From the IMG/VR virus record IMGVR_UViG_3300013099_000019: DNA of 64,000 nt; one strand, given 5' to 3'. This document shows positions 1,887 to 45,889 of the stretch, one piece after another (the stretch's first letter is position 1; each line of letters begins with the position of its first letter). The notes beneath the pieces are model-generated. The model did not search any database. It was not told the DNA's origin and was given only the letters and a program-made list of their open reading frames with translations. This DNA comes from a virus. Its lineage: Duplodnaviria > Heunggongvirae > Uroviricota > Caudoviricetes. A program made the translations under genes and the position numbers.

Positions 1887-2678
1887 ATGAAAAAAATAAC
1901 ATTTTTAGATAAAGGTATGTATAGTATAGATACAAATGAGTGGGCTTTTGTTAAACAAATAAAAGGTGGTTATGTAACTTTAGGTGATACTCAAACTTGT
2001 AAAGATTATACTCATGAAGCTATTTGTAATTCAATACATAAAAATAAAATAAAATCATTTTGTGGTTATAACGGTAATGCTGGAGTAGTTGTAGATAAAT
2101 TACAATTTGTAATGTTTTTTAGTAGTGATGATGATACTAAAAAAAGAGTAATTAGCACTAAACGTATGTTAAATTATATTGAAAGAAAAAATGGTTTACC
2201 TACTACAACAATTACTGAAGTTAAGATTGTAAGTAAAAATCATATAGAAAAAAATAAATTAAAAAGTGCTTTTGTATTTACTGCAGATAAAACATATATA
2301 GAATCTCCTGCACTTATGCATGGAATGTTTGCTTTTTTAAGAACAATGCATCTATATGGAAAGAACATAACGTATAAAAATACTCTTAAAATTTTAAAAA
2401 GTAAAAACATTAAAGATGCAGCAGTGTTAAAATATGTTTTAACTAATGATATTATGGGAATTCTTATTAGGAACCATCCAGCAATTATTAAAGGATTAAA
2501 TCTTAAACGTATTTACCCTAAAAAAGTTACTAATATTGTAAAAGGTAAAGGTGTAGCCTCATATCACGGTGGTTTTGGTATGGGAGCCTTAAGTATACAG
2601 CGTTTTGCCGTTAAAGTGTATGCAAAAAGAGTCTTAAAAGTACTTGATGATAATAAAATACAAAAAATAAAATGGTAA
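1887..2678 (+). CDS. hypothetical protein
   Basis: 263-aa ORF with no recognisable motifs. Confidence 0.5.
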   Translation: MKKITFLDKGMYSIDTNEWAFVKQIKGGYVTLGDTQTCKDYTHEAICNSIHKNKIKSFCGYNGNAGVVVDKLQFVMFFSSDDDTKKRVISTKRMLNYIERKNGLPTTTITEVKIVSKNHIEKNKLKSAFVFTADKTYIESPALMHGMFAFLRTMHLYGKNITYKNTLKILKSKNIKDAAVLKYVLTNDIMGILIRNHPAIIKGLNLKRIYPKKVTNIVKGKGVASYHGGFGMGALSIQRFAVKVYAKRVLKVLDDNKIQKIKW

Positions 2679-2693
2679 ATTTAGGAGTTTCTA

Positions 2694-2990
2694 ATGAATG
2701 CACAACAAAAAGATTTGTACAATTCTTATATAGCAGAGTTTAATAAGGCTTTTATGGCTACTGATCTTAAATATCTAAGGTTTGGTCAAGCTTTTTATAA
2801 TTGTTTTTATGGTTCCATTTATACTAAACCTAAGCCAGAATTATTTTACGAAGAAGACCGTACAAAAATAATTAAAATTATCTGCGCTGATATTGAAAAG
2901 TACATTCTTACAGGAAAAGCTGGAAATCCTGTTACAATTATGAAATTGCCAGAGGCTTCTTATGTCCAAAAAAAGAAAGAAAAAGGATAA
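2694..2990 (+). CDS. hypothetical protein
   Basis: 98-aa ORF with an AGGAG RBS. Confidence 0.45.
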   Translation: MNAQQKDLYNSYIAEFNKAFMATDLKYLRFGQAFYNCFYGSIYTKPKPELFYEEDRTKIIKIICADIEKYILTGKAGNPVTIMKLPEASYVQKKKEKG

Positions 2991-3086
2991 AAAAATAAAA
3001 TTTAGGATACCTGTACCTCCTCCTAATCAGACACATAAAGATAAAAATAAATATGATAGAAAGAAAAAACATAAGAAATTAACTAA

Positions 3087-8144: not shown

Positions 8145-9494
8145 ATGATAGAACAAGAAATAACATCAAAACTTGAAGAAGCAGGTTTTGAAGTATATAT
8201 TGTAGGTGGAGCAGTACGTGACTTTATTTTAGGAGAAATTCCTAAAGATTATGATTTTGCTACAAATGCTAAACCAAATGAAGTTATTAGAATTTTTAAT
8301 GATAAAAAAATATGTGTTGTAGGTAAGTCTTTTAAAGTAGTATTAGTTAATGATGTAGAAATTGCTACTTACAGGAAAGATTTACAGGAAGTAATGTTTA
8401 ACCCTAAACATTGTAAGCCTGAATATGCTAAAAATATTACAGAAGATCTTGAACGTAGAGACTTGACTATAAATGCAATGGCTATACAAGTGCATAAAAC
8501 GCTCCTAAATGAAAGAGTTATACTTGACCTACATGGTGGTATAAATGATTTAAATAATGGTGTTATACGCCTTGTAGGTGATCCTTACACTCGTTTAAAT
8601 CAAGATCCGTGTCGTATATTAAGAGCTTGTAGATTTCTTGCTAAAATAGAAGGAACATTTGAAGCAGAAACTTTTAAGGCTTTACAAGATTGTGCTCATT
8701 ATATTAAATCTTATGTTGAGCCAGAACGTATCCGTATAGAAATACTTAAAGCTATGGAACTTAAAGTACCTTCTTTATTTTTTAGTGCTCTACACTTAAT
8801 TGGTGGTTTAAAATATATTTTTCCAGAGTTAGACAAATGTTTTCAACATGATCACGGTAAATATCATAAAGAAAATATAGGCGAACATTGTATGCATGCA
8901 GGAGATGTAGTATCTTCTAGATTTCCTTTACTTCGCTTGGCCGCTTTTTTACATGATGTTGGAAAACCTAAAGCATTTAAGAAACAAGGTGATGGAAGTT
9001 TTATATGTCATGAACTTTATGGAGAAAAAATTGTTATAGAAAGATTACAAAATTTAAAATTTTCTAATAAAGAAGTAGCAACTATAGCCAATCTTGTAGG
9101 TTCACATATGCTTCAATGCAGAAGTTTAAAAGCTAAAGGTATTAGACGCTTACATAAAAAATTAGCAGATAAAAAAGTAGATTCACGTTCCTTTATCCGT
9201 TTAAAACTTGCGGATAGATCTTCTAATATGGCTAAAGATGCTAGTCGTTTTACACCAATTAAAGAATTAATAGTAAATGCCGGAATTCGTGGCTATAAAG
9301 AAGAAATACCTTTTACTGTGAAGGAATTAACAATTTCTGGTGGAGAATTAATTGATTATTTTAATCTAATACCTGGACCTATAGTAGGTAATCTTCAAAA
9401 ATATCTTTTAAACTATGTAATAGAAATGGGAGAAGAGTTTAACACTAGAGATATTCTATTAAAAGAAGCAAAATTAATATTAAAAACTATATAA
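8145..9494 (+). CDS. cca: tRNA nucleotidyltransferase (CCA-adding enzyme) with HD domain
   Basis: N-terminus YIVGGAVRDFILG...DYDFAT is the class-II nucleotidyltransferase head. Downstream HD-type His/Asp motifs (HDVGK) follow. Length is 449 aa. Confidence 0.8.
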   Translation: MIEQEITSKLEEAGFEVYIVGGAVRDFILGEIPKDYDFATNAKPNEVIRIFNDKKICVVGKSFKVVLVNDVEIATYRKDLQEVMFNPKHCKPEYAKNITEDLERRDLTINAMAIQVHKTLLNERVILDLHGGINDLNNGVIRLVGDPYTRLNQDPCRILRACRFLAKIEGTFEAETFKALQDCAHYIKSYVEPERIRIEILKAMELKVPSLFFSALHLIGGLKYIFPELDKCFQHDHGKYHKENIGEHCMHAGDVVSSRFPLLRLAAFLHDVGKPKAFKKQGDGSFICHELYGEKIVIERLQNLKFSNKEVATIANLVGSHMLQCRSLKAKGIRRLHKKLADKKVDSRSFIRLKLADRSSNMAKDASRFTPIKELIVNAGIRGYKEEIPFTVKELTISGGELIDYFNLIPGPIVGNLQKYLLNYVIEMGEEFNTRDILLKEAKLILKTI

Positions 9495-10398: not shown

Positions 10399-11141
10399 TG
10401 AAAGATATTATAGATACATCAAATTGTTATGTTTTAGGGGATATACATGGAGAATGGAAACATTTAAATACTTTTATTAATAAAAAACAACCAACTACAA
10501 TACTTCAAGTAGGAGATTTAGGCTTCTGGCCAGCTTTTCATAATAAAACTACTTTAGGTGATAGAGTAATGACTTCTAGTGGTATTATAAAAAAGAAATG
10601 GTACCAAGATGGAATGAAAATGGGAAGTACAAATCTTTATTGGTGTGACGGTAATCATGAAGATCATTGGGCACTTAGGGAAATTGTTGATAAGAATCCT
10701 GATGATATAATGTATGAAGTGTGTCCTAAAATATTTTATCTGAAAAGAGGAAGTATTGTAGGGACTACTGACGGAAGAAATATACTATTTATGGGAGGTG
10801 CTACATCTATTGATAAAAATTCTAGGACTTTGGGGTTTGACTGGTTTCCAGGAGAAGTGATTACTCAAAATGATATTTATAACCTTGAAGATAAAAAAGT
10901 TGATATAGTTATTTCACATACTTGTCCAAGAGAATTTTTGCCTGAAGTACTTAAGTCTGACTTAAGAAAATATAATGATTCTTGTTATGATGCTTTATCT
11001 TATATTTTACAAAAGTATAATCCTAAATTATGGTATTTTGGTCATTTTCATCATAATATTTCTGGCTTTTATAATAATACAAGTTGGTTCTGTTTAAATA
11101 TGGCAAAACACAGTGGATGGTTTGAAAAATTATTAAAATAA
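10386..11141 (+). CDS. Ser/Thr phosphatase-like metallophosphoesterase
   Basis: Carries GDIHG, VGDLGFW and DGNHEDH, matching the lambda-phosphatase-type GDxHG/GDxxDRG/GNHE motifs. Confidence 0.65.
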   Translation: MVLLMKDIIDTSNCYVLGDIHGEWKHLNTFINKKQPTTILQVGDLGFWPAFHNKTTLGDRVMTSSGIIKKKWYQDGMKMGSTNLYWCDGNHEDHWALREIVDKNPDDIMYEVCPKIFYLKRGSIVGTTDGRNILFMGGATSIDKNSRTLGFDWFPGEVITQNDIYNLEDKKVDIVISHTCPREFLPEVLKSDLRKYNDSCYDALSYILQKYNPKLWYFGHFHHNISGFYNNTSWFCLNMAKHSGWFEKLLK

Positions 11142-13423: not shown

Positions 13424-13858
13424 ATGTTTAAGTGTTTAACAGATTTTGAAAAAGAGTATATGTTTAAAAATACAGCTATACGAATTTCAAAAAGAAATCC
13501 TAATGATAAAGCACGTTTATGGTTATCTGTTTATGATAAAGAAGATGTCAATAAAATTACTCATAATATATTATCATTTACAAGGTCCAGTAACTCTGAT
13601 GCTGTAGTAGTTTCTAGTTTAAAAAAAGCAGATTCTGGCATATCAGATATAAAAGATATATATGTAGCTATATGTGAGCAGGCTATAGAAAGATTTACAA
13701 AACTTGCTATGTTAAAAAAAGTAAGCAGACTTACTATTTTTACAGTAGACCCTTTTATTCAAGAAATAATGTTAGAAAAAGGTTTTTGTCTATCAAAAAC
13801 AGATAGTAATAATATAAATGAACAAAGTATTGTGGGTACTTTAACTATCAAGAATTAA
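13424..13858 (+). CDS. hypothetical protein
   Basis: 144-aa ORF. Confidence 0.45.
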   Translation: MFKCLTDFEKEYMFKNTAIRISKRNPNDKARLWLSVYDKEDVNKITHNILSFTRSSNSDAVVVSSLKKADSGISDIKDIYVAICEQAIERFTKLAMLKKVSRLTIFTVDPFIQEIMLEKGFCLSKTDSNNINEQSIVGTLTIKN

Positions 13859-15598: not shown

Positions 15599-15623
15599 AT
15601 TAAATTTTTAGGAGAATTAACAA

Positions 15624-16511
15624 ATGAGTATTGGAACAGATCCCGAGTTCTTTATTAAAGATAAAGAAACTGGCAAATTTTTAAATGCCGAAACAATGTT
15701 CCCAGGCACAAAAGAGGAACCATTTATTATGAAAAGTGGTGCCGGTCTTCAAACAGACAATGTATGTGTAGAATTTGCAAGTCCTGTTGCAGAAGATGGA
15801 AAAGACATGGTTAATAAGTTAAAAGCTGTATTTGGAGAACTTATGTCTATGTTGCCTGAAGGTACAGATATTGATGTATCACCATCGGCAAATTTTGATA
15901 AAGATCAACTTCAATCAGATCAAGCTCAATTGTTTGGTTGTTCTACTTCTTATGATGCTTGGGAATTAAAAGCTAATGATCCTGCTGACGCCTCAACTAC
16001 TAATCTTAGAAGTTGTGGCGGACATATCCACATAGGCAAAAATGAAGATGATGGTAATGATTTTCTTTATGATCCATATGGAAAAGTTGATGTTGTAAAA
16101 ATGTGTGACACTTTCCATGGTATTATAAGTGTTATTCTTGATAACTCCGAAGCTTCTGTGGAAAGACGTAAAATTTATGGAAAAGCAGGAGATCATAGAG
16201 GAACTCCTTATGGTGTTGAGTATAGAACGTTAAGTTCCTTTTGGTTGAAATCACCAAGTCTTGTAATGCTTATTGCAAGTCTTACACAAAATATTCTTGG
16301 TATTATTAGAGAAAACAAGAATGAGGCAATTATTAAAACTATCGGTGCTGCTAAGATTCAAAACACTATCAACACAGGAGATGTAAAAGTTGCAAAAGAA
16401 ATTTTAGATAATTTTTTGATGGAACATTTATCTGAAGATTCTAAGTATTACTTAGCAGAATGTATGAAAATTGAGTATGATTTTAAAAAAGAATGGTCTT
16501 TATCTGTATAA
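15624..16511 (+). CDS. GCS2 / glutamine-synthetase-like amidoligase, paralog 1
   Basis: N-terminal GTDPEFF (the GS/GCS2 G.[DE]PE[FL]F motif) and a downstream CGGHIHIG (HxH metal site). It has three paralogs in this window. Confidence 0.55.
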   Translation: MSIGTDPEFFIKDKETGKFLNAETMFPGTKEEPFIMKSGAGLQTDNVCVEFASPVAEDGKDMVNKLKAVFGELMSMLPEGTDIDVSPSANFDKDQLQSDQAQLFGCSTSYDAWELKANDPADASTTNLRSCGGHIHIGKNEDDGNDFLYDPYGKVDVVKMCDTFHGIISVILDNSEASVERRKIYGKAGDHRGTPYGVEYRTLSSFWLKSPSLVMLIASLTQNILGIIRENKNEAIIKTIGAAKIQNTINTGDVKVAKEILDNFLMEHLSEDSKYYLAECMKIEYDFKKEWSLSV

Positions 16512-36125: not shown

Positions 36126-36794
36126 ATGTCTACTAGTAATTTAAATTTTGAAAAAAAAGGTTTGCTAACAGGTTTAACAATAGATAATACAAAGGTGTAT
36201 GTTAGAATTTTAGAAAATGCAGTATCTAATTTATATTTTAACACAAGACATTATAGTGTAAAACGTTTAAAAATTGTTCATACTGAAGGTACAGAACAAA
36301 CTTTTTATATGTTAAATAAAAAGGATCAAACAAATGCTGTTAATAATATAAAAGATGTTATTTTAGAAATGCGTGAAAGCGGTCAAGTAGATAGAGAAGG
36401 AGCAGTTATTATGACTAAATATAATGGTTTACCCTCACAATACTTATCTGAAAGGGCAGAAAATTTTAAGAAAAAAACTAATGTATTTGGTCTTAACAAT
36501 CAATTACCTGCAACTACTAAACCTATTTTACCTGCTAAAACTATATATAATACAAAAATATACCAACCTCCTGTAAAAAAAGTTACCTATATTAGAAGAA
36601 AAACTAAGAAGCCTTCTGAAAAATTCTTAGTCTCTATGAAAAAAAAGGTTGCAAAAATTACTGAAGGTATGTATAAAGAAAAGAAATTACCAAAAACAGA
36701 TGAAGTGTATGAACATGTAAAATCTGTAGGACAAAGTATGTATGATGCTGATGATTATGAGTATATGGATGAAAGTAATAGGTTTTACGATTGA
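36126..36794 (+). CDS. hypothetical protein
   Basis: ORF next to the GNAT gene; the start is uncertain (36090 or 36126). Confidence 0.45.
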   Translation: MSTSNLNFEKKGLLTGLTIDNTKVYVRILENAVSNLYFNTRHYSVKRLKIVHTEGTEQTFYMLNKKDQTNAVNNIKDVILEMRESGQVDREGAVIMTKYNGLPSQYLSERAENFKKKTNVFGLNNQLPATTKPILPAKTIYNTKIYQPPVKKVTYIRRKTKKPSEKFLVSMKKKVAKITEGMYKEKKLPKTDEVYEHVKSVGQSMYDADDYEYMDESNRFYD

Positions 36795-36795
36795 A

Positions 36796-37794
36796 ATGGG
36801 GGATACGGTGGGTATTATAGGAAATAAAAATATGAAAAAGCAGATAGATGTAGCAATCGCTTCTGCTAAACAACGTAATACTGCACCTCCCCATATGTTA
36901 TTTTCAGGTCATGCAGGTTGTGGAAAAACATCTATGGCTAAAGAAGTATCTAAAATTTTAGGAGGAGATTTTATATCTGTAATACCAGAAGATATTAAAA
37001 ATCAAAAAACAGTTTTAAATTTATTAGATGCTCTTAATTATGAAGGTTACGACAATAAAGGTAATAGAAAAAATGACATAAAACCCACCGTTATTTTTTT
37101 AGATGAGTGTCATCGATTACCTATGTTTGGACAAGAAAAATTAGGTATAGCTATGGAAAATTTTACTATGGAAACTGGTCAAGCAAATAAATTGTTTTGG
37201 CTTCCTTATTTTACTATAATAGGTGCAACTACAATTGCTGGAGAATTGTCCAAACCATTTCTTGATAGATTTAAACTTAACTTTTTTTTTAATCCTTACG
37301 ATGAAAAAGAATCGTGTAGTATTGTCAAGTACCACGCTAATAAACTTGAAATAGACATAACAAATAAAGCAATACTGGATGTAGCTATAAGAGGTAGAGG
37401 CGTTCCAAGAGTAATGCTTAGGTATCTTGAGTGTTGTAGAGATATGATGTTTGCTGTAAATAGTAAAGTTATTACTAGTGGTTTATCTAGAATTACTTTT
37501 GATAATATGAGAATAGATAAAAAAGGTTTTAATATTGTTGAACTTAAAATATTGAAATCATTATATAATTCAGATAAAGCTGTAGGTTTAGAAACACTAT
37601 CTTTAATAACAGGTGAATCTGCTAAAACAATAAAAAATGAAATTGAAACCTATCTAATAAGAAATGAATACATGGTAAGATCTGGGGCAGGAAGAAGCAT
37701 TACTGCTAAAGGTAGAATGTATTTAGAAGAACAAGGTTATGTAGGTGTAAAGAACGGAAGAGAAACAATTACTGCTAATTATGAGAGGTATTAA
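36796..37794 (+). CDS. RuvB-like AAA+ ATPase (Holliday-junction helicase-like)
   Basis: Walker A GHAGCGKT, Walker B IFLDECHRL, and TIIGATTIAGELSKPFLDRF matching the RuvB sensor region (LIGATTRAG..L..PLRDRF). Confidence 0.7.
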   Translation: MGDTVGIIGNKNMKKQIDVAIASAKQRNTAPPHMLFSGHAGCGKTSMAKEVSKILGGDFISVIPEDIKNQKTVLNLLDALNYEGYDNKGNRKNDIKPTVIFLDECHRLPMFGQEKLGIAMENFTMETGQANKLFWLPYFTIIGATTIAGELSKPFLDRFKLNFFFNPYDEKESCSIVKYHANKLEIDITNKAILDVAIRGRGVPRVMLRYLECCRDMMFAVNSKVITSGLSRITFDNMRIDKKGFNIVELKILKSLYNSDKAVGLETLSLITGESAKTIKNEIETYLIRNEYMVRSGAGRSITAKGRMYLEEQGYVGVKNGRETITANYERY

Positions 37795-39985: not shown

Positions 39986-40006
39986 AAAAAGTAGTATAAT
40001 AAAGTT

Positions 40007-40084
40007 TAGAGATGGTGTATAGTACAGTTACTTCAACTTGTAAATTGACCTGTAAAACTGTACTAGTTTGTTCCTCTCTATTTT
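40007..40084 (+). ncRNA. conserved extended hairpin element, copy 1 (terminator-like; candidate small ncRNA / Y-RNA-like)
   Basis: tagagatgg-tgtat-agtacagt-tacttca...actgtact-agtttgtt-cctctcta-tttt. Two helices (tagagaNgg/cctctcta and agtacagt/actgtact) flank an internal loop. The element is near-identical to the copy at 44317. Confidence 0.6.
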
Positions 40085-40588: not shown

Positions 40589-40742
40589 GTAGTATCATAG
40601 TCATAAAGTATTTTTTAATGAAAATTAATACTTGTAAAAGGCACTTGTAGTGCATGAACAGTAACTACATTAGTGAAAGTAGTACGTATTTCATAGTGAA
40701 ATTTAAAATTTGGCTTAACTCAACTAAATTTTATACTACTTA

Positions 40743-40812
40743 GAATATATAGCTCAATTGGAAGAGTGATAGGCTTTCCCCTATGACGTAGGTTCAATTC
40801 CTACTATATTCT
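40743..40812 (+). tRNA. tRNA-like gene with non-canonical anticodon arm (possibly Glu-UUC-like)
   Basis: Acceptor gaatata/tatattc (7 bp), D arm gctc..gagt, T arm gtagg-ttcaatt-cctac. The anticodon stem atagg/cctat only pairs if the loop is 6 nt (ctttcc). The variable region is 3 nt. Confidence 0.45.
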
Positions 40813-40822
40813 GAACAAACAT

Positions 40823-41151
40823 GGGCGTGTGGCGGAACGGCAGACGCATGGGAGGACCAGAAAGTCAGTCCCCTTTTATTAGAAATAGTAATCGAAAATT
40901 GGATGAATTCAAGGAAGGCTAAACCTAACTATTAGGTATGCTAACCCTGAGCGAAGCCTTAAGTACACTTAAGGAACGTGCAGAGACTACCTGAGAGATA
41001 TAGTTCTCTTAATAACAGGCAAGAGCGTCCGATACCTTAACAAATAAAGTTGCAGGTAATGAGATAGTCCATGCTACTATGAAAATAGTAGACACACAGC
41101 TTAAAATCCCTTGATCTTATGATCGTGAGAGTTCGAATCTCTCCATGCCCA
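40823..41151 (+). tRNA. tRNA-Leu(UAA)-like gene interrupted by a ~246-nt group-I-like intron
   Basis: 5' part gggcgtg-tg-gcg-gaacggcaga-cgc-a-tggga (Leu-type D arm). 3' part cttaaaa-tccct-[tgatcttatgatcgt]-gagag-ttcgaat-ctctc-catgccc-a. Acceptor gggcgtg/catgccc is fully paired. Confidence 0.6.
40854..41099 (+). other. group-I-like intron (IA-type R and S elements) within tRNA-Leu
   Basis: R-like cagagactac and S-like gagatagtcc match T4-type group IA consensus (UCAGAGACUACA / AAGAUAUAGUCC). A P9-like hairpin ctacta..tagtag is present. The intron ends with G (41099) directly before the anticodon loop cttaaaa. Confidence 0.5.
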
Positions 41152-41174: not shown

Positions 41175-41360
41175 GTGAGAAGATTAAAATACTTAGAAAC
41201 ATCCACAATGAAAGTTGTTCTTTGTGATTGTCATCATACAACAGGTTTTGATAATTGTTTATTAACTAAAATAAAAAGCTTGCCTAAATTTGCTAATTGT
41301 GGTAGAGTACTATATATTAAAAGGTACTTTAAAAAATTAATGGTTTTGTGTAAAGATTGA
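41175..41360 (+). CDS. hypothetical small Cys/His-containing protein
   Basis: 61-aa ORF between tRNA genes. Confidence 0.3.
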   Translation: MRRLKYLETSTMKVVLCDCHHTTGFDNCLLTKIKSLPKFANCGRVLYIKRYFKKLMVLCKD

Positions 41361-41590: not shown

Positions 41591-41597
41591 GTATTAT

Positions 41598-41676
41598 AGG
41601 GTGATATTCTAACGGTAAGGAGCCAGGTTTTGATCCTGGTGCGAAAGCTCTGCAGGTTCGAATCCTGCTCACCCTG
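41598..41676 (+). tRNA. tRNA-Gln(UUG)-like with unusually long (12-nt) variable region
   Basis: Acceptor agggtga/tcaccct. Anticodon stem ccagg/cctgg with loop ttttgat (anticodon TTG). T arm gcagg-ttcgaat-cctgc. Confidence 0.55.
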
Positions 41677-41686
41677 AATAAAAAAT

Positions 41687-42822: not shown

Positions 42823-42953
42823 TTGGAAGTAGCTCAGTGGTAGAGCCTCAGCCCCCAAAAAATCTCTTTTCGCTTATTCCCTTAACTGTGGTGTAGAATA
42901 GAGATACTTCATACTCAAGCTGATGGTCGTTGGTTCAATCCCAACCTTCCAAT
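42823..42953 (+). ncRNA. tRNA-like gene with 66-nt conserved structured insert replacing/expanding the anticodon loop (insert family member 1)
   Basis: Acceptor ttggaag/cttccaa (7/7). D arm gctc-agtggta-gagc. Anticodon stem tcagc/gctga encloses 66 nt. T arm gttgg-ttcaatc-ccaac. The insert carries the TGCTTATTCC and GGTGTAGAATAGAGATACTTCA blocks. Confidence 0.55.
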
Positions 42954-44304: not shown

Positions 44305-44316
44305 AATTTGTATGTT

Positions 44317-44391
44317 TAGAGATGGTGTATAGTACAGTTACTTCACTTTTAATGAAACTAACACTGTACTAGTTTGTTCCTCTCTATTTTT
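44317..44391 (+). ncRNA. conserved extended hairpin element, copy 2 (terminator-like; candidate Y-RNA-like), adjacent to tRNA-Met and the Ro60-like gene
   Basis: Same 5' arm tagagatggtgtatagtacagttacttca and 3' arm actgtactagtttgttcctctcta-ttttt as copy 1. The apical region differs between copies. Confidence 0.6.
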
Positions 44392-44393
44392 AA

Positions 44394-44468
44394 GGGCATT
44401 TAGCTTAGCTGGCCAAAAGCCATCGGCTCATAACCGATCGATCCGGGGTTCGACTCCCTGAATGCCCA
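44394..44468 (+). tRNA. tRNA-Met/Ile2 (CAU anticodon), elongator-type
   Basis: Acceptor gggcatt/aatgccc with a paired 1:72. Anticodon stem atcgg/ccgat with loop ctcataa (CAT). T loop ttcgact. Confidence 0.65.
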
Positions 44469-44512: not shown

Positions 44513-45889
44513 ATGGCGAGTTTAAACAAAAAACCAGTAGTAAAATTTACACATGAAGGTGGTAAAGCAAAACATATCAATGCTGCACTTGAACTTGAAA
44601 GGACAGTTATGGCTTGTATGCTTTGGGAAAGATCTTTTTATGAGTCTGGAGAATCTATTGTAGATAGAATTCAACAACTTGTAGCTAAAGTAGCCCCTAA
44701 AAAAGTAGCTGAGCTGGCAATAAAAGCACGTTATGATATGAAACTTCGTCATGTACCTTTATTACTTGTAAGTATTATGGTAAAATTACCAGCTTACAGG
44801 CCTTATGTTTCTGATACTTTATTTCAAATTATCAATAGACCTGATGAAATGGCAGAATTTTTAGCTATGTATTGGAAAGATGGAAAATGTCCTGTAGCTA
44901 ATTCTGTTAAAAGAGGTTTGGCCTCTTGTTTTCTTAAATTTAATGAGTATCAATTTTCTAAATGGAATAGACCTAATGCTATTAAACTAAGAGATGTAAT
45001 GTTTATTTGTCATCCTAAACCTGTAAATAAAAAGCAAGAAGATATGTTCAAAAGAATTGCTGATGATACTCTTGAAGTTCCTGATACTTGGGAAGTAGCA
45101 CTTAGTTCAGGAGCAGATAAGCAAAAAACATGGACAAGATTACTAGAAGAGAAAAAGTTGGGCGGTATGGCTCTTATCAGAAATCTTCGTAACATGGAGA
45201 ATGTAGGAGTAGATAAGCAATTAGTTAAAAAAAGTATTACAGAAATAAAATCTAATTTTATTTTACCCTTTAGATACATTGCTGCAGCAAAATATGCTCC
45301 TAAATTTGAACCAGAATTAGAGTATGCTATGTTTAATTCTTTAGTTACACACGATAAATTAAAAGGAAATACAGTTCTTTTGATTGATGTTTCTGGTTCT
45401 ATGTGGCAATCTCTTTCAAGTAAATCAGATATGTTACGAATTGATACTGCTTGTGGTTTAGCTATGTTACTTAGAGAAATTTGTGAAGATATAGATATTT
45501 ATACTTTCTCATTAGAATTAAAAAGTGTAGCTCCAAGAAGAGGTTTTGCACTTAGGGATGCGATTATAAATTCTCAAGATCATAGTGGAACATATTTAGG
45601 CCATGCAGTAAAAAATATTTATGCAAAGAAGGGTAGTAGTGACAGGTTTTCTGGTTATTACAGGGGACACCTTACGTTTAAAGGCCAAGGACTAAGTCCA
45701 GAACGTCTTATTGTTATAACTGATGAACAGTCCGCAGATAAAGTACCTAATCCAAAAGGTAAAGGTTATATGATGAATGTAGCCTCTTATCAAAATGGTG
45801 TAGGGTATGGCGCTTGGACACATATTGATGGTTTTAGTGAGTCATGTGTGAAATGGTTACAAGCTATGGAAAATTGTGCATTTTTATAA
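44513..45889 (+). CDS. Ro60-like (TROVE domain + vWA domain) RNA-binding protein
   Basis: The N-terminal ~300 aa resemble the Ro/TROVE fold (ERSFYESGESIVDRIQQLV...KLRHVPLLLVSIM). The C-terminus has the vWA MIDAS motif VLLIDVSGSMW. A TROVE+vWA pair is the Ro60/Rsr architecture. AGGAGG RBS is present. Confidence 0.55.
   Translation: MASLNKKPVVKFTHEGGKAKHINAALELERTVMACMLWERSFYESGESIVDRIQQLVAKVAPKKVAELAIKARYDMKLRHVPLLLVSIMVKLPAYRPYVSDTLFQIINRPDEMAEFLAMYWKDGKCPVANSVKRGLASCFLKFNEYQFSKWNRPNAIKLRDVMFICHPKPVNKKQEDMFKRIADDTLEVPDTWEVALSSGADKQKTWTRLLEEKKLGGMALIRNLRNMENVGVDKQLVKKSITEIKSNFILPFRYIAAAKYAPKFEPELEYAMFNSLVTHDKLKGNTVLLIDVSGSMWQSLSSKSDMLRIDTACGLAMLLREICEDIDIYTFSLELKSVAPRRGFALRDAIINSQDHSGTYLGHAVKNIYAKKGSSDRFSGYYRGHLTFKGQGLSPERLIVITDEQSADKVPNPKGKGYMMNVASYQNGVGYGAWTHIDGFSESCVKWLQAMENCAFL

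Follow-up and report, generated by a model that had tools for sequence, protein, structure and literature searches.

A split phage tRNA-Leu(UAA) gene carries a group I intron at the anticodon-stem/loop boundary without a U·G pair at its 5′ splice site

A tailed-phage genome carries a leucine transfer RNA (tRNA) gene that is split by a group I intron outside the classical tRNA-Leu insertion site. The window, as we call the whole 64,000-nucleotide (nt) stretch of IMG/VR record IMGVR_UViG_3300013099_000019 (Caudoviricetes) analyzed here, is a low-GC (about 29%) phage genome with nearly all genes on the + strand. It encodes a phage-type helicase, an RNA-polymerase-like protein, a CCA-adding enzyme (8145-9494), a TROVE/Ro60-like protein (44513-45889) and a tRNA cluster. 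The split gene, a tRNA-Leu(UAA) of type II with a long variable arm, occupies 40823-41151. A near-universal U·G wobble is treated as the determinant of the group I 5′ splice site, and this intron does not have one.

Results

Joining the two exons of the split gene gives a canonical tRNA. Exon 1 (40823-40853; this and all intron features below lie on the + strand) comprises the acceptor 5′ strand, the D arm and the anticodon-stem 5′ strand UGGGA (tRNA positions 27-31), reading GGGCGTG TG GCGG AACGGCAGA CGC A TGGGA. Exon 2 (41100-41151) extends from the whole anticodon loop CUUAAAA (CTTAAAA in the DNA) through TCCCT, a variable hairpin GATC/GATC, the T arm GAGAG/CTCTC and the acceptor 3′ strand CATGCCC to the discriminator A41151. 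The intron between them (40854-41099) contains no open reading frame (ORF), begins with GGACC and ends with CACACAG. ARAGORN left the split gene uncalled on the genomic sequence. It called the 40853|41100 ligation product as tRNA-Leu(taa), 85 nt long, with a 7-bp acceptor stem, a 3-bp D stem plus GG, a long variable hairpin, a T arm and a 7-nt loop with U33. A first-pass annotation, made from the sequence letters, had proposed a tRNA-Leu(UAA)-like gene whose exons form a type-II tRNA around an intervening sequence of roughly 246 nt. The intron is exactly that long, the D arm, long variable hairpin and full acceptor pairing are all present in the ligated product, and homologue alignment agrees with the ARAGORN identity.

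The insertion point is fixed at the DNA level. We tried 42 alternative joins, and only 40853|41100 yields the 7-nt loop CUUAAAA on a GGGA/UCCC stem and hence a canonical tRNA-Leu by ARAGORN; in the other joins that the program called, stems or loops were shorter or longer than they should be, or the anticodon was arbitrary, and these were rejected. Fourteen intronless phage tRNA-Leu(UAA) genes, all reading ..GGGACTTAAAATCCC.., align collinearly with the ligated product, as do the spliced classical alleles described below. With A|G at the 5′ boundary and G|C at the 3′ boundary, the junction cannot slide. The intron sits between tRNA nucleotides 31 and 32, at the boundary of anticodon stem and loop and 3 nt upstream of the classical 34/35 site. 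That it lies at 31/32 and not at 34/35 had already been suggested in the first-pass annotation, which observed that the sequence after the 5′ stem (tggga|ggacc) supplies no loop and that the intervening sequence ends in G directly before a complete anticodon loop. Both observations stand: the classical CUU|...G|AAAA arrangement is absent, the whole loop lies in exon 2, and G41099 directly precedes C32. The expected spliced junction is GCAUGGGA|CUUAAAAUCCC, for which GACGCATGGGACTTAAAATCCCTTGATC is the spliced-junction k-mer and ATGGGAGGACC the unspliced one.

Independent assemblies contain the same arrangement. It recurs with 100% identity in an independent ENA assembly (L057) and with 96% identity in a different phage contig (L202), which rules out an assembly artifact. 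Downstream of the gene, the contigs of the independent ENA assembly break near window positions 41270-41291, where L057 ends (41270) and L055 starts (41291), and the Logan contigs L056 and L058 stop short of this interval; the window's own assembly spans the gap.

The intron core looks intact. Rfam Intron_gpI (RF00028), the check proposed in the annotation for its group-I-like call, matches 40819-41091 with 79.2 bits (gathering score 50, E 1.8e-18) and covers the P3-P9 core. Standard pairs account for 71 of the 72 proposed intron pairs. In an alignment of the window intron with nine relatives, among them the S-PM2 psbA intron, whose coding sequence is annotated as spliced, it keeps all 63 invariant columns and every column conserved at 90% or above. 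The minimum-free-energy (MFE) fold places a P1 extension hairpin at 40855-40866 (GAC/GUC, loop CAGAAA). The P2 hairpin (40876-40891, UUAUUA GAAA UAGUAA) is supported by the Rfam and family alignments and by pair counts. The Rfam alignment also gives the P3 5′ strand (40898-40905, pairing with 41026-41033) and the P4-P5-P5a-P6-P6a domain (40909-40979) and, together with pair counts, the P8 hairpin (41034-41057) and the P9 hairpin (41074-41091, CUACUAU GAAA AUAGUAG). The T4-type R and S elements named in the annotation were found as CAGAGACTAC at 40981-40990 and GAGATAGTCC at 41061-41070. They are the two strands of P7, in which GACUA (40985-40989) pairs with UAGUC (41065-41069), and this pairing is invariant in the aligned family.

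The architecture points to an IA-type intron. A 30-nt hairpin, P7.1, lies between P7 and P3′ at 40990-41019 as an insertion relative to the Rfam model; it is common to the S-PM2 psbA and crAss-like phage introns and absent from the classical tRNA-Leu intron. In the Michel-Westhof classification P7.1 is an IA trait, and IC3 introns have none. Neither an IC3 core nor a CUU/GAG P1 was found, and by these sequence features the intron is of IA type and unrelated to the classical cyanobacterial tRNA-Leu intron. The two share a host gene and anticodon, a similar size (about 250 nt) and the lack of an ORF. They differ in that the CUU of the loop pairs with the guide through U·G in the classical IC3 intron at 34/35, whereas here the stem strand GGGA pairs with the guide through A-U and a P7.1 is present.

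The closest relatives of the intron reside in phages and in other tRNA genes. By BLAST it is 70-83% identical to members of an IA-type family of phage and tRNA-resident introns. The closest in annotated phage records are the S-PM2 psbA intron (80% over 87 nt, spanning P6a-P7-P7.1-P3′) and crAss-like introns (70-77%). The former differs in interrupting a protein-coding gene, in lacking P2 and in its canonical U·G P1 (GAGCGU/GCGCUC); the latter overlap or adjoin ORFs annotated as endonuclease or hypothetical protein, and likewise have a canonical U·G P1 (GGGUU/GACCC). A degenerate core pattern recovered more than 120 IMG/VR loci of the family, including introns in phage tRNA genes, at 36/37 of tRNA(CAU) in L072, L078 and L085 and at 35/36 of tRNA-Asn in L111, as well as ORF-containing versions (L066/L157/L163). 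A 19-mer common with the window, GGAACGTGCAGAGACTACC, found further tRNA-Asn 35/36 introns in metagenomes, and metagenome and IMG/VR sequences together added the tRNA-intron loci L208, L215, L219 and L221/L232. The metagenome tRNA-Asn introns resemble the validated IA introns of Patescibacteria (Nakagawa et al. 2026, PMC13011429).

The IA tRNA introns, found in tRNA-Asn/Asp at 35/36 and in tRNA(CAU) at 36/37, share with the window intron GGAACGTGCAGAGACTACC, P2, the J1/2 CUU, J8/7-P7, the P9-ACA(A/C)AC tail, a 4-nt exon/guide P1, size (197-246 nt) and the lack of an ORF. They differ in position and in the cleavage-site pair: those introns directly follow a U of the 7-nt loop that forms U·G (UCAU|, CUGU|), whereas the window intron follows an A, paired to U, where stem and loop meet. 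In the crAss-like contig L054 (cr6_1), RAGATH-7-assoc and RAGATH-9 motifs (1229-1350 and 1-92) stand immediately upstream of the group I intron.

A Watson-Crick A-U pair replaces the wobble at the 5′ splice site. The MFE fold, helix enumeration and positional homology agree on a P1 in which exon 1 GGGA (40850-40853), also the anticodon-stem 5′ strand, pairs with UCCC (40869-40872). The internal guide sequence, AGUCCC (40867-40872), exactly complements the ligated junction GGGA|CU, and its A40867-G40868 can pair with C41100-U41101 of exon 2 as a short P10 abutting A40853:U40869. In the tRNA-resident relatives, four exon nucleotides precede the splice site and a short loop, a 4-nt guide, J1/2 CUU (or CCU) and P2 follow it, as in L072 (UCAU|..GUGA-CUU), L111 (CUGU|..GCAG-CUU) and L208 (GCUGU|..GCAGC-CCU). 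The window reads GGGA|GGACCAGAAAGUCAG-UCCC-CUU. The first guide nucleotide of the relatives is a G that wobble-pairs with U at -1; in the same register the window has U40869 paired with A40853, the -1 nucleotide. Both partners are changed, and the same pair occurs in the L202 copy. An exhaustive helix search found no U(-1)·G P1 near the anticodon arm; the U·G helices that it returned lie inside exon 1 or inside P2 only and were set aside as spurious.

The 3′ end follows the pattern of the relatives. After P9, the tail P9-ACACACAG| is homologous to their P9-ACAAACGUG| and P9-ACAACUG|, whose 3′ sites are fixed by the tRNA exons; omega-G, the last intron nucleotide, is therefore assigned to 41099. 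Positional homology to related tRNA introns, whose sites are canonical, supports both predicted splice sites.

Related phages carry a different intron in the same gene. We reached syntenic phage contigs through homologues of the RuvB-like protein (36742-37794), which is 82% identical in the closest, L179/L180, and 70% identical in the more distant L182-L185. All of these have a homologous, roughly syntenic tRNA-Leu(UAA) that is split at the classical 34/35 site. The classical alleles read ..AGGGACTT|...G|AAAATCCCT.. (..GGGACTT|...G|AAAATCCC), with the guide UUGAG and a U34·G pair; the genes lie at 15223-15545 in L179, about 12785-13107 in L180 and 9977-10302 in L185, with equivalents in L182 and L183. 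On Intron_gpI the L179 and L185 introns reach 62 and 46 bits in scans of their own; Rfam default filters passed over both in a 114-kb batch scan. By sequence, the window intron resembles phage IA introns more than it does those of these sister phages. One phage lineage thus holds, in the same gene, two different group I introns 3 nt apart, and since syntenic relatives carry the classical intron in the homologous gene, the intron has been exchanged.

The tRNA regions of these relatives hold further elements. Directly 3′ of the classical-intron tRNA-Leu of L179 lies an ORF of 207 amino acids (aa; 15619-16242) with a weak, sub-threshold HNH match (E 9.5e-4; 19.7 bits, cut-off 21.4), a candidate free-standing homing endonuclease. 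The window lacks this ORF, and the next one there (41175-41360) is the counterpart of L179 16375-16563. In the related phage L181, a tRNA at 13554-13687 (Rfam 56 bits over 134 nt; uncalled by ARAGORN) has an anticodon-loop insertion of about 60 nt, TCAGA-CTCCTTAGACAC...CATTCAAA-TCTGA, too short for a group I intron, and the contig encodes an RNA ligase (PF09414). manA RNA motifs (RF01745, about 92 bits) adjoin the tRNA genes of L182 (13340-13532), L183 (12895-13087) and L185 (10547-10739).

A diverged second phage preserves the split gene. The contig L202, from another sample, was found through the 188-aa upstream neighbor, whose homologue is 70% identical, and has the same gene with identical junctions at 2675-3003. 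The tRNA-Leu exons match at 82 of 83 positions (31/31 in exon 1; 51/52 in exon 2, the change falling in the variable-arm loop) and the introns at 235 of 246 (95.5%). Identity is 69-76% in the adjacent protein genes, 83% in tRNA-Arg and 66% in the spacer from tRNA-Arg to the next tRNA, and the spacer abutting exon 1 differs by a 56-nt indel. High identity sets in at tRNA position 1 and ends a few nt past the discriminator.

The differences between the two introns largely spare its helices. The tRNA helices are invariant in L202. Among the 11 intron substitutions, five fall at unpaired positions, two make up a compensatory change in P5a (C40924-G40936 to U-A), three keep their pairs (U40900·G to C-G in P3; A-U to G·U in P5a and P9) and one opens the loop-closing pair of P8. 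In the P1 region the only difference is A40859 to C, in the loop. When 11 substitutions were placed at random with the transition count matched, 3.9% of 100,000 trials broke at most one pair. UUA is the most used leucine codon in the window's large ORFs (51% of leucine codons), and the window has no other tRNA-Leu(UAA). Conservation and codon use favor a functional, selected gene, a case that is suggestive rather than conclusive.

Discussion

The probable reading of this locus, in our judgment, is an intron that is active at 31/32 with A-U as its cleavage-site pair; both splicing and its efficiency are predicted from sequence and fold. In the precursor, the anticodon-stem 5′ strand GGGA (40850-40853) would pair with the guide UCCC (40869-40872) to form P1, and exogenous G would attack after A40853. 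The guide nucleotides AG (40867-40868) would then align C32-U33 of exon 2 in P10, and the 3′-OH of exon 1 would attack after omega-G41099. Upon ligation, GGGA would re-pair with exon 2 UCCC to restore the anticodon stem. Because P1 takes the whole GGGA strand, P1 and the anticodon stem should be mutually exclusive in the precursor. Such an intron would have replaced the classical 34/35 intron still found in related phages, or arrived after its loss, and purifying selection would maintain it, since the leucine codon that tRNA-Leu(UAA) reads is the commonest in the phage. The fuller proposal has a naturally selected splicing ribozyme that substitutes A-U for U·G, takes the whole anticodon-stem 5′ strand as its P1 substrate, switches from P1 to stem, is the first at tRNA 31/32 and alternates with an unrelated intron in one gene; to this combination we give roughly even chances.

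The missing wobble is a serious problem for this reading, and several further points weigh against it. In the largest survey (10.1101/2020.01.27.920355), U·G occupies the 5′ splice site in 98.5% of mapped bacterial tRNA introns, and the sole sizeable exception to U(-1)/G(omega) is C(-1), whose splicing is flagged there as needing a test. That exception offers a partial parallel: the Leu.3Cg introns of Proteobacteria are natural tRNA-Leu introns with a Watson-Crick pair for U·G and predicted splicing, but they lie at the classical 34/35 site with C(-1):G, whereas the window intron lies at 31/32 with A:U and both partners changed (10.1101/2020.01.27.920355). Because Watson-Crick replacement of U·G inactivates the Tetrahymena intron, according to the same source, the first step may be crippled by the A-U pair. 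The substitution test is weak, with P about 0.04 and a structure drawn from the window sequence itself. The two diverged copies have identical P1 stems, so the cleavage-site pair shows no covariation, and the 95.5% intron identity could partly reflect recent lateral gene transfer between the two phages.

The same facts would fit a real intron that is splicing-dead, having inserted at a site without U·G or lost that pair by mutation, in a gene that is now a pseudogene, with copies alike through recent cassette transfer. Besides the A-U pair and the Tetrahymena precedent, it draws on there being two known copies whose P1 stems are identical and whose exons are near-invariant. Neutral recent transfer, however, would not be expected to leave a high-identity block that follows the gene boundaries between spacers only 14-66% identical. 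The 11 intron differences, one compensatory pair among them, avoid helix breaks, the core is intact at every position, and UUA is the phage's main leucine codon. We consider a dead intron unlikely on this balance. Conservation argues for function and the missing wobble against an efficient first step, a tension that could also be relieved if the first step were assisted by a maturase-like protein or nuclease of phage or host, or were deliberately slow, so that tRNA supply is gated during infection and the ribozyme mainly ligates exons. Barfod and Cech reportedly found in 1989 that U·G is needed for step 1 and not for step 2. The genome is well supplied with RNA-handling genes, among them those for the CCA-adding enzyme and the TROVE/Ro60-like protein, and related phages have an RNA ligase. 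There is, however, no candidate maturase or endonuclease beside the gene, where the 61-aa and 182-aa neighbors have no Pfam match, and nothing specific points to help, so that the idea argues from an absence; we regard it as more doubtful still than a dead intron.

Splicing might also use other sites. Cleavage after G40854, for example, would give a non-canonical tRNA with an 8-nt anticodon loop (GCUUAAAA). ARAGORN calls tRNA-Leu(taa) also when exon 1 ends at 40854-40856, and analogy to the crAss-type P1 (GGGUU/GACCC) would put the fifth P1 position at G40854. But G40854 faces G40868/A40867, with which it cannot pair, the 4-nt guide register of the closest relatives sets -1 at A40853, the P10 of AG with CU abuts A40853:U40869 exactly, and the canonical product matches all homologues, which makes alternative sites very improbable. 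Viral contigs also contain partial 3′ tRNA-Leu fragments that start at CTTAAAATCCC. In L188, an isolated tRNA-Leu(UAA) 3′ part (10423-10470) runs from the anticodon loop to the 3′ end with no recognizable 5′ half upstream, and is probably an att-site-like remnant. We considered on this model whether the window gene could be an att-like duplicated tRNA 3′ half beside an unrelated intron, or an assembly chimera, and rejected the idea: the arrangement is identical in three assemblies from different pipelines and in the diverged second phage, and the exons are mutually complementary, form a full 7-bp acceptor stem and flank the ribozyme exactly. An explanation of this kind is effectively refuted.

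If the intron splices, it bears on how group I introns choose their 5′ splice sites. A conserved natural intron without U·G would be a ready-made test case for how far the wobble, and how far the register of the helix acting as a ruler, selects the site. Were it splicing-dead, it would still neatly illustrate how a phage keeps a disabled gene, but would be of far less interest. The sister phages, with different introns 3 nt apart in the same gene, provide a direct record of intron turnover. The lost wobble, the IA-type phage ancestry, the classical intron of the sister phages and the conserved, diverged second copy had all gone unseen in the first-pass annotation.

Surveys of tRNA introns may be biased against this class. 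A 2014 review placed all phage introns then known in protein-coding genes and none in a tRNA gene (PMC3984707), and full-text searches of the literature collection available to us found no later report of an intron in a phage tRNA gene. We found at least nine distinct phage or metagenome tRNA genes with introns of the IA family or of the classical type. The 2026 Patescibacteria pipeline sets the intron boundary as starting after U (PMC13011429), the Williams 2020 pipeline scores only U or C at -1 (10.1101/2020.01.27.920355), and neither looks beyond the anticodon loop and its edges. With U (or C) demanded at -1, both pipelines would pass over or misplace an intron that has A there, and intron finders built in this way would miss such a class.

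Additional observations

Several searches for further copies yielded no informative one. Exact-pattern scans of IMG/VR with three exon strings gave no match, and megablast against INPHARED phages matched the tRNA-Arg only. At 51 IMG/VR loci reached through the TROVE protein (at most 60% identity), blastn, nhmmer and core-motif searches matched neither the intron nor the tRNA-Leu exons, and no Leu(taa) gene that ARAGORN calls there is interrupted. The 182-aa downstream neighbor had no homologue besides itself. Scans for omega-G followed by the full Leu loop and T arm found none in metagenome_contigs and genome_contigs, two collections that evidently lack both the window contig and L202. L201, whose neighbor protein is 80% identical, stops just before the tRNA-Leu, and L203-L205 had no blastn match to either allele.

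Two neighboring tRNA-like genes have unusual structures. The first, at 40742-40813 (L202 2538-2609), scores 53.8 bits on Rfam tRNA and has a 6-nt loop, CUUUCC, on an ATAGG/CCTAT stem, for which ARAGORN gives a 2-nt "anticodon" (tt) and Lys|Glu. The L202 copy, with the loop UUUUCC, is 94% identical, so that the gene is conserved despite its abnormal loop. The second, tRNA-Gln(ttg) at 41597-41677, is 81 nt long with an extended variable region, unusual for Gln; the genes of the relatives L182 and L179 measure 73-75 nt.

A repeat of about 80 nt occurs at 40004-40084 and 44314-44390, with roughly 89% identity overall and two 32-nt blocks at 97-100%, and a partial third copy lies at 42880-42911. 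One full copy stands immediately 5′ of tRNA-Met (44394-44468) and the TROVE/Ro60-like gene. The repeat could be a promoter or a structured RNA, such as a Y-RNA-like partner of Ro.

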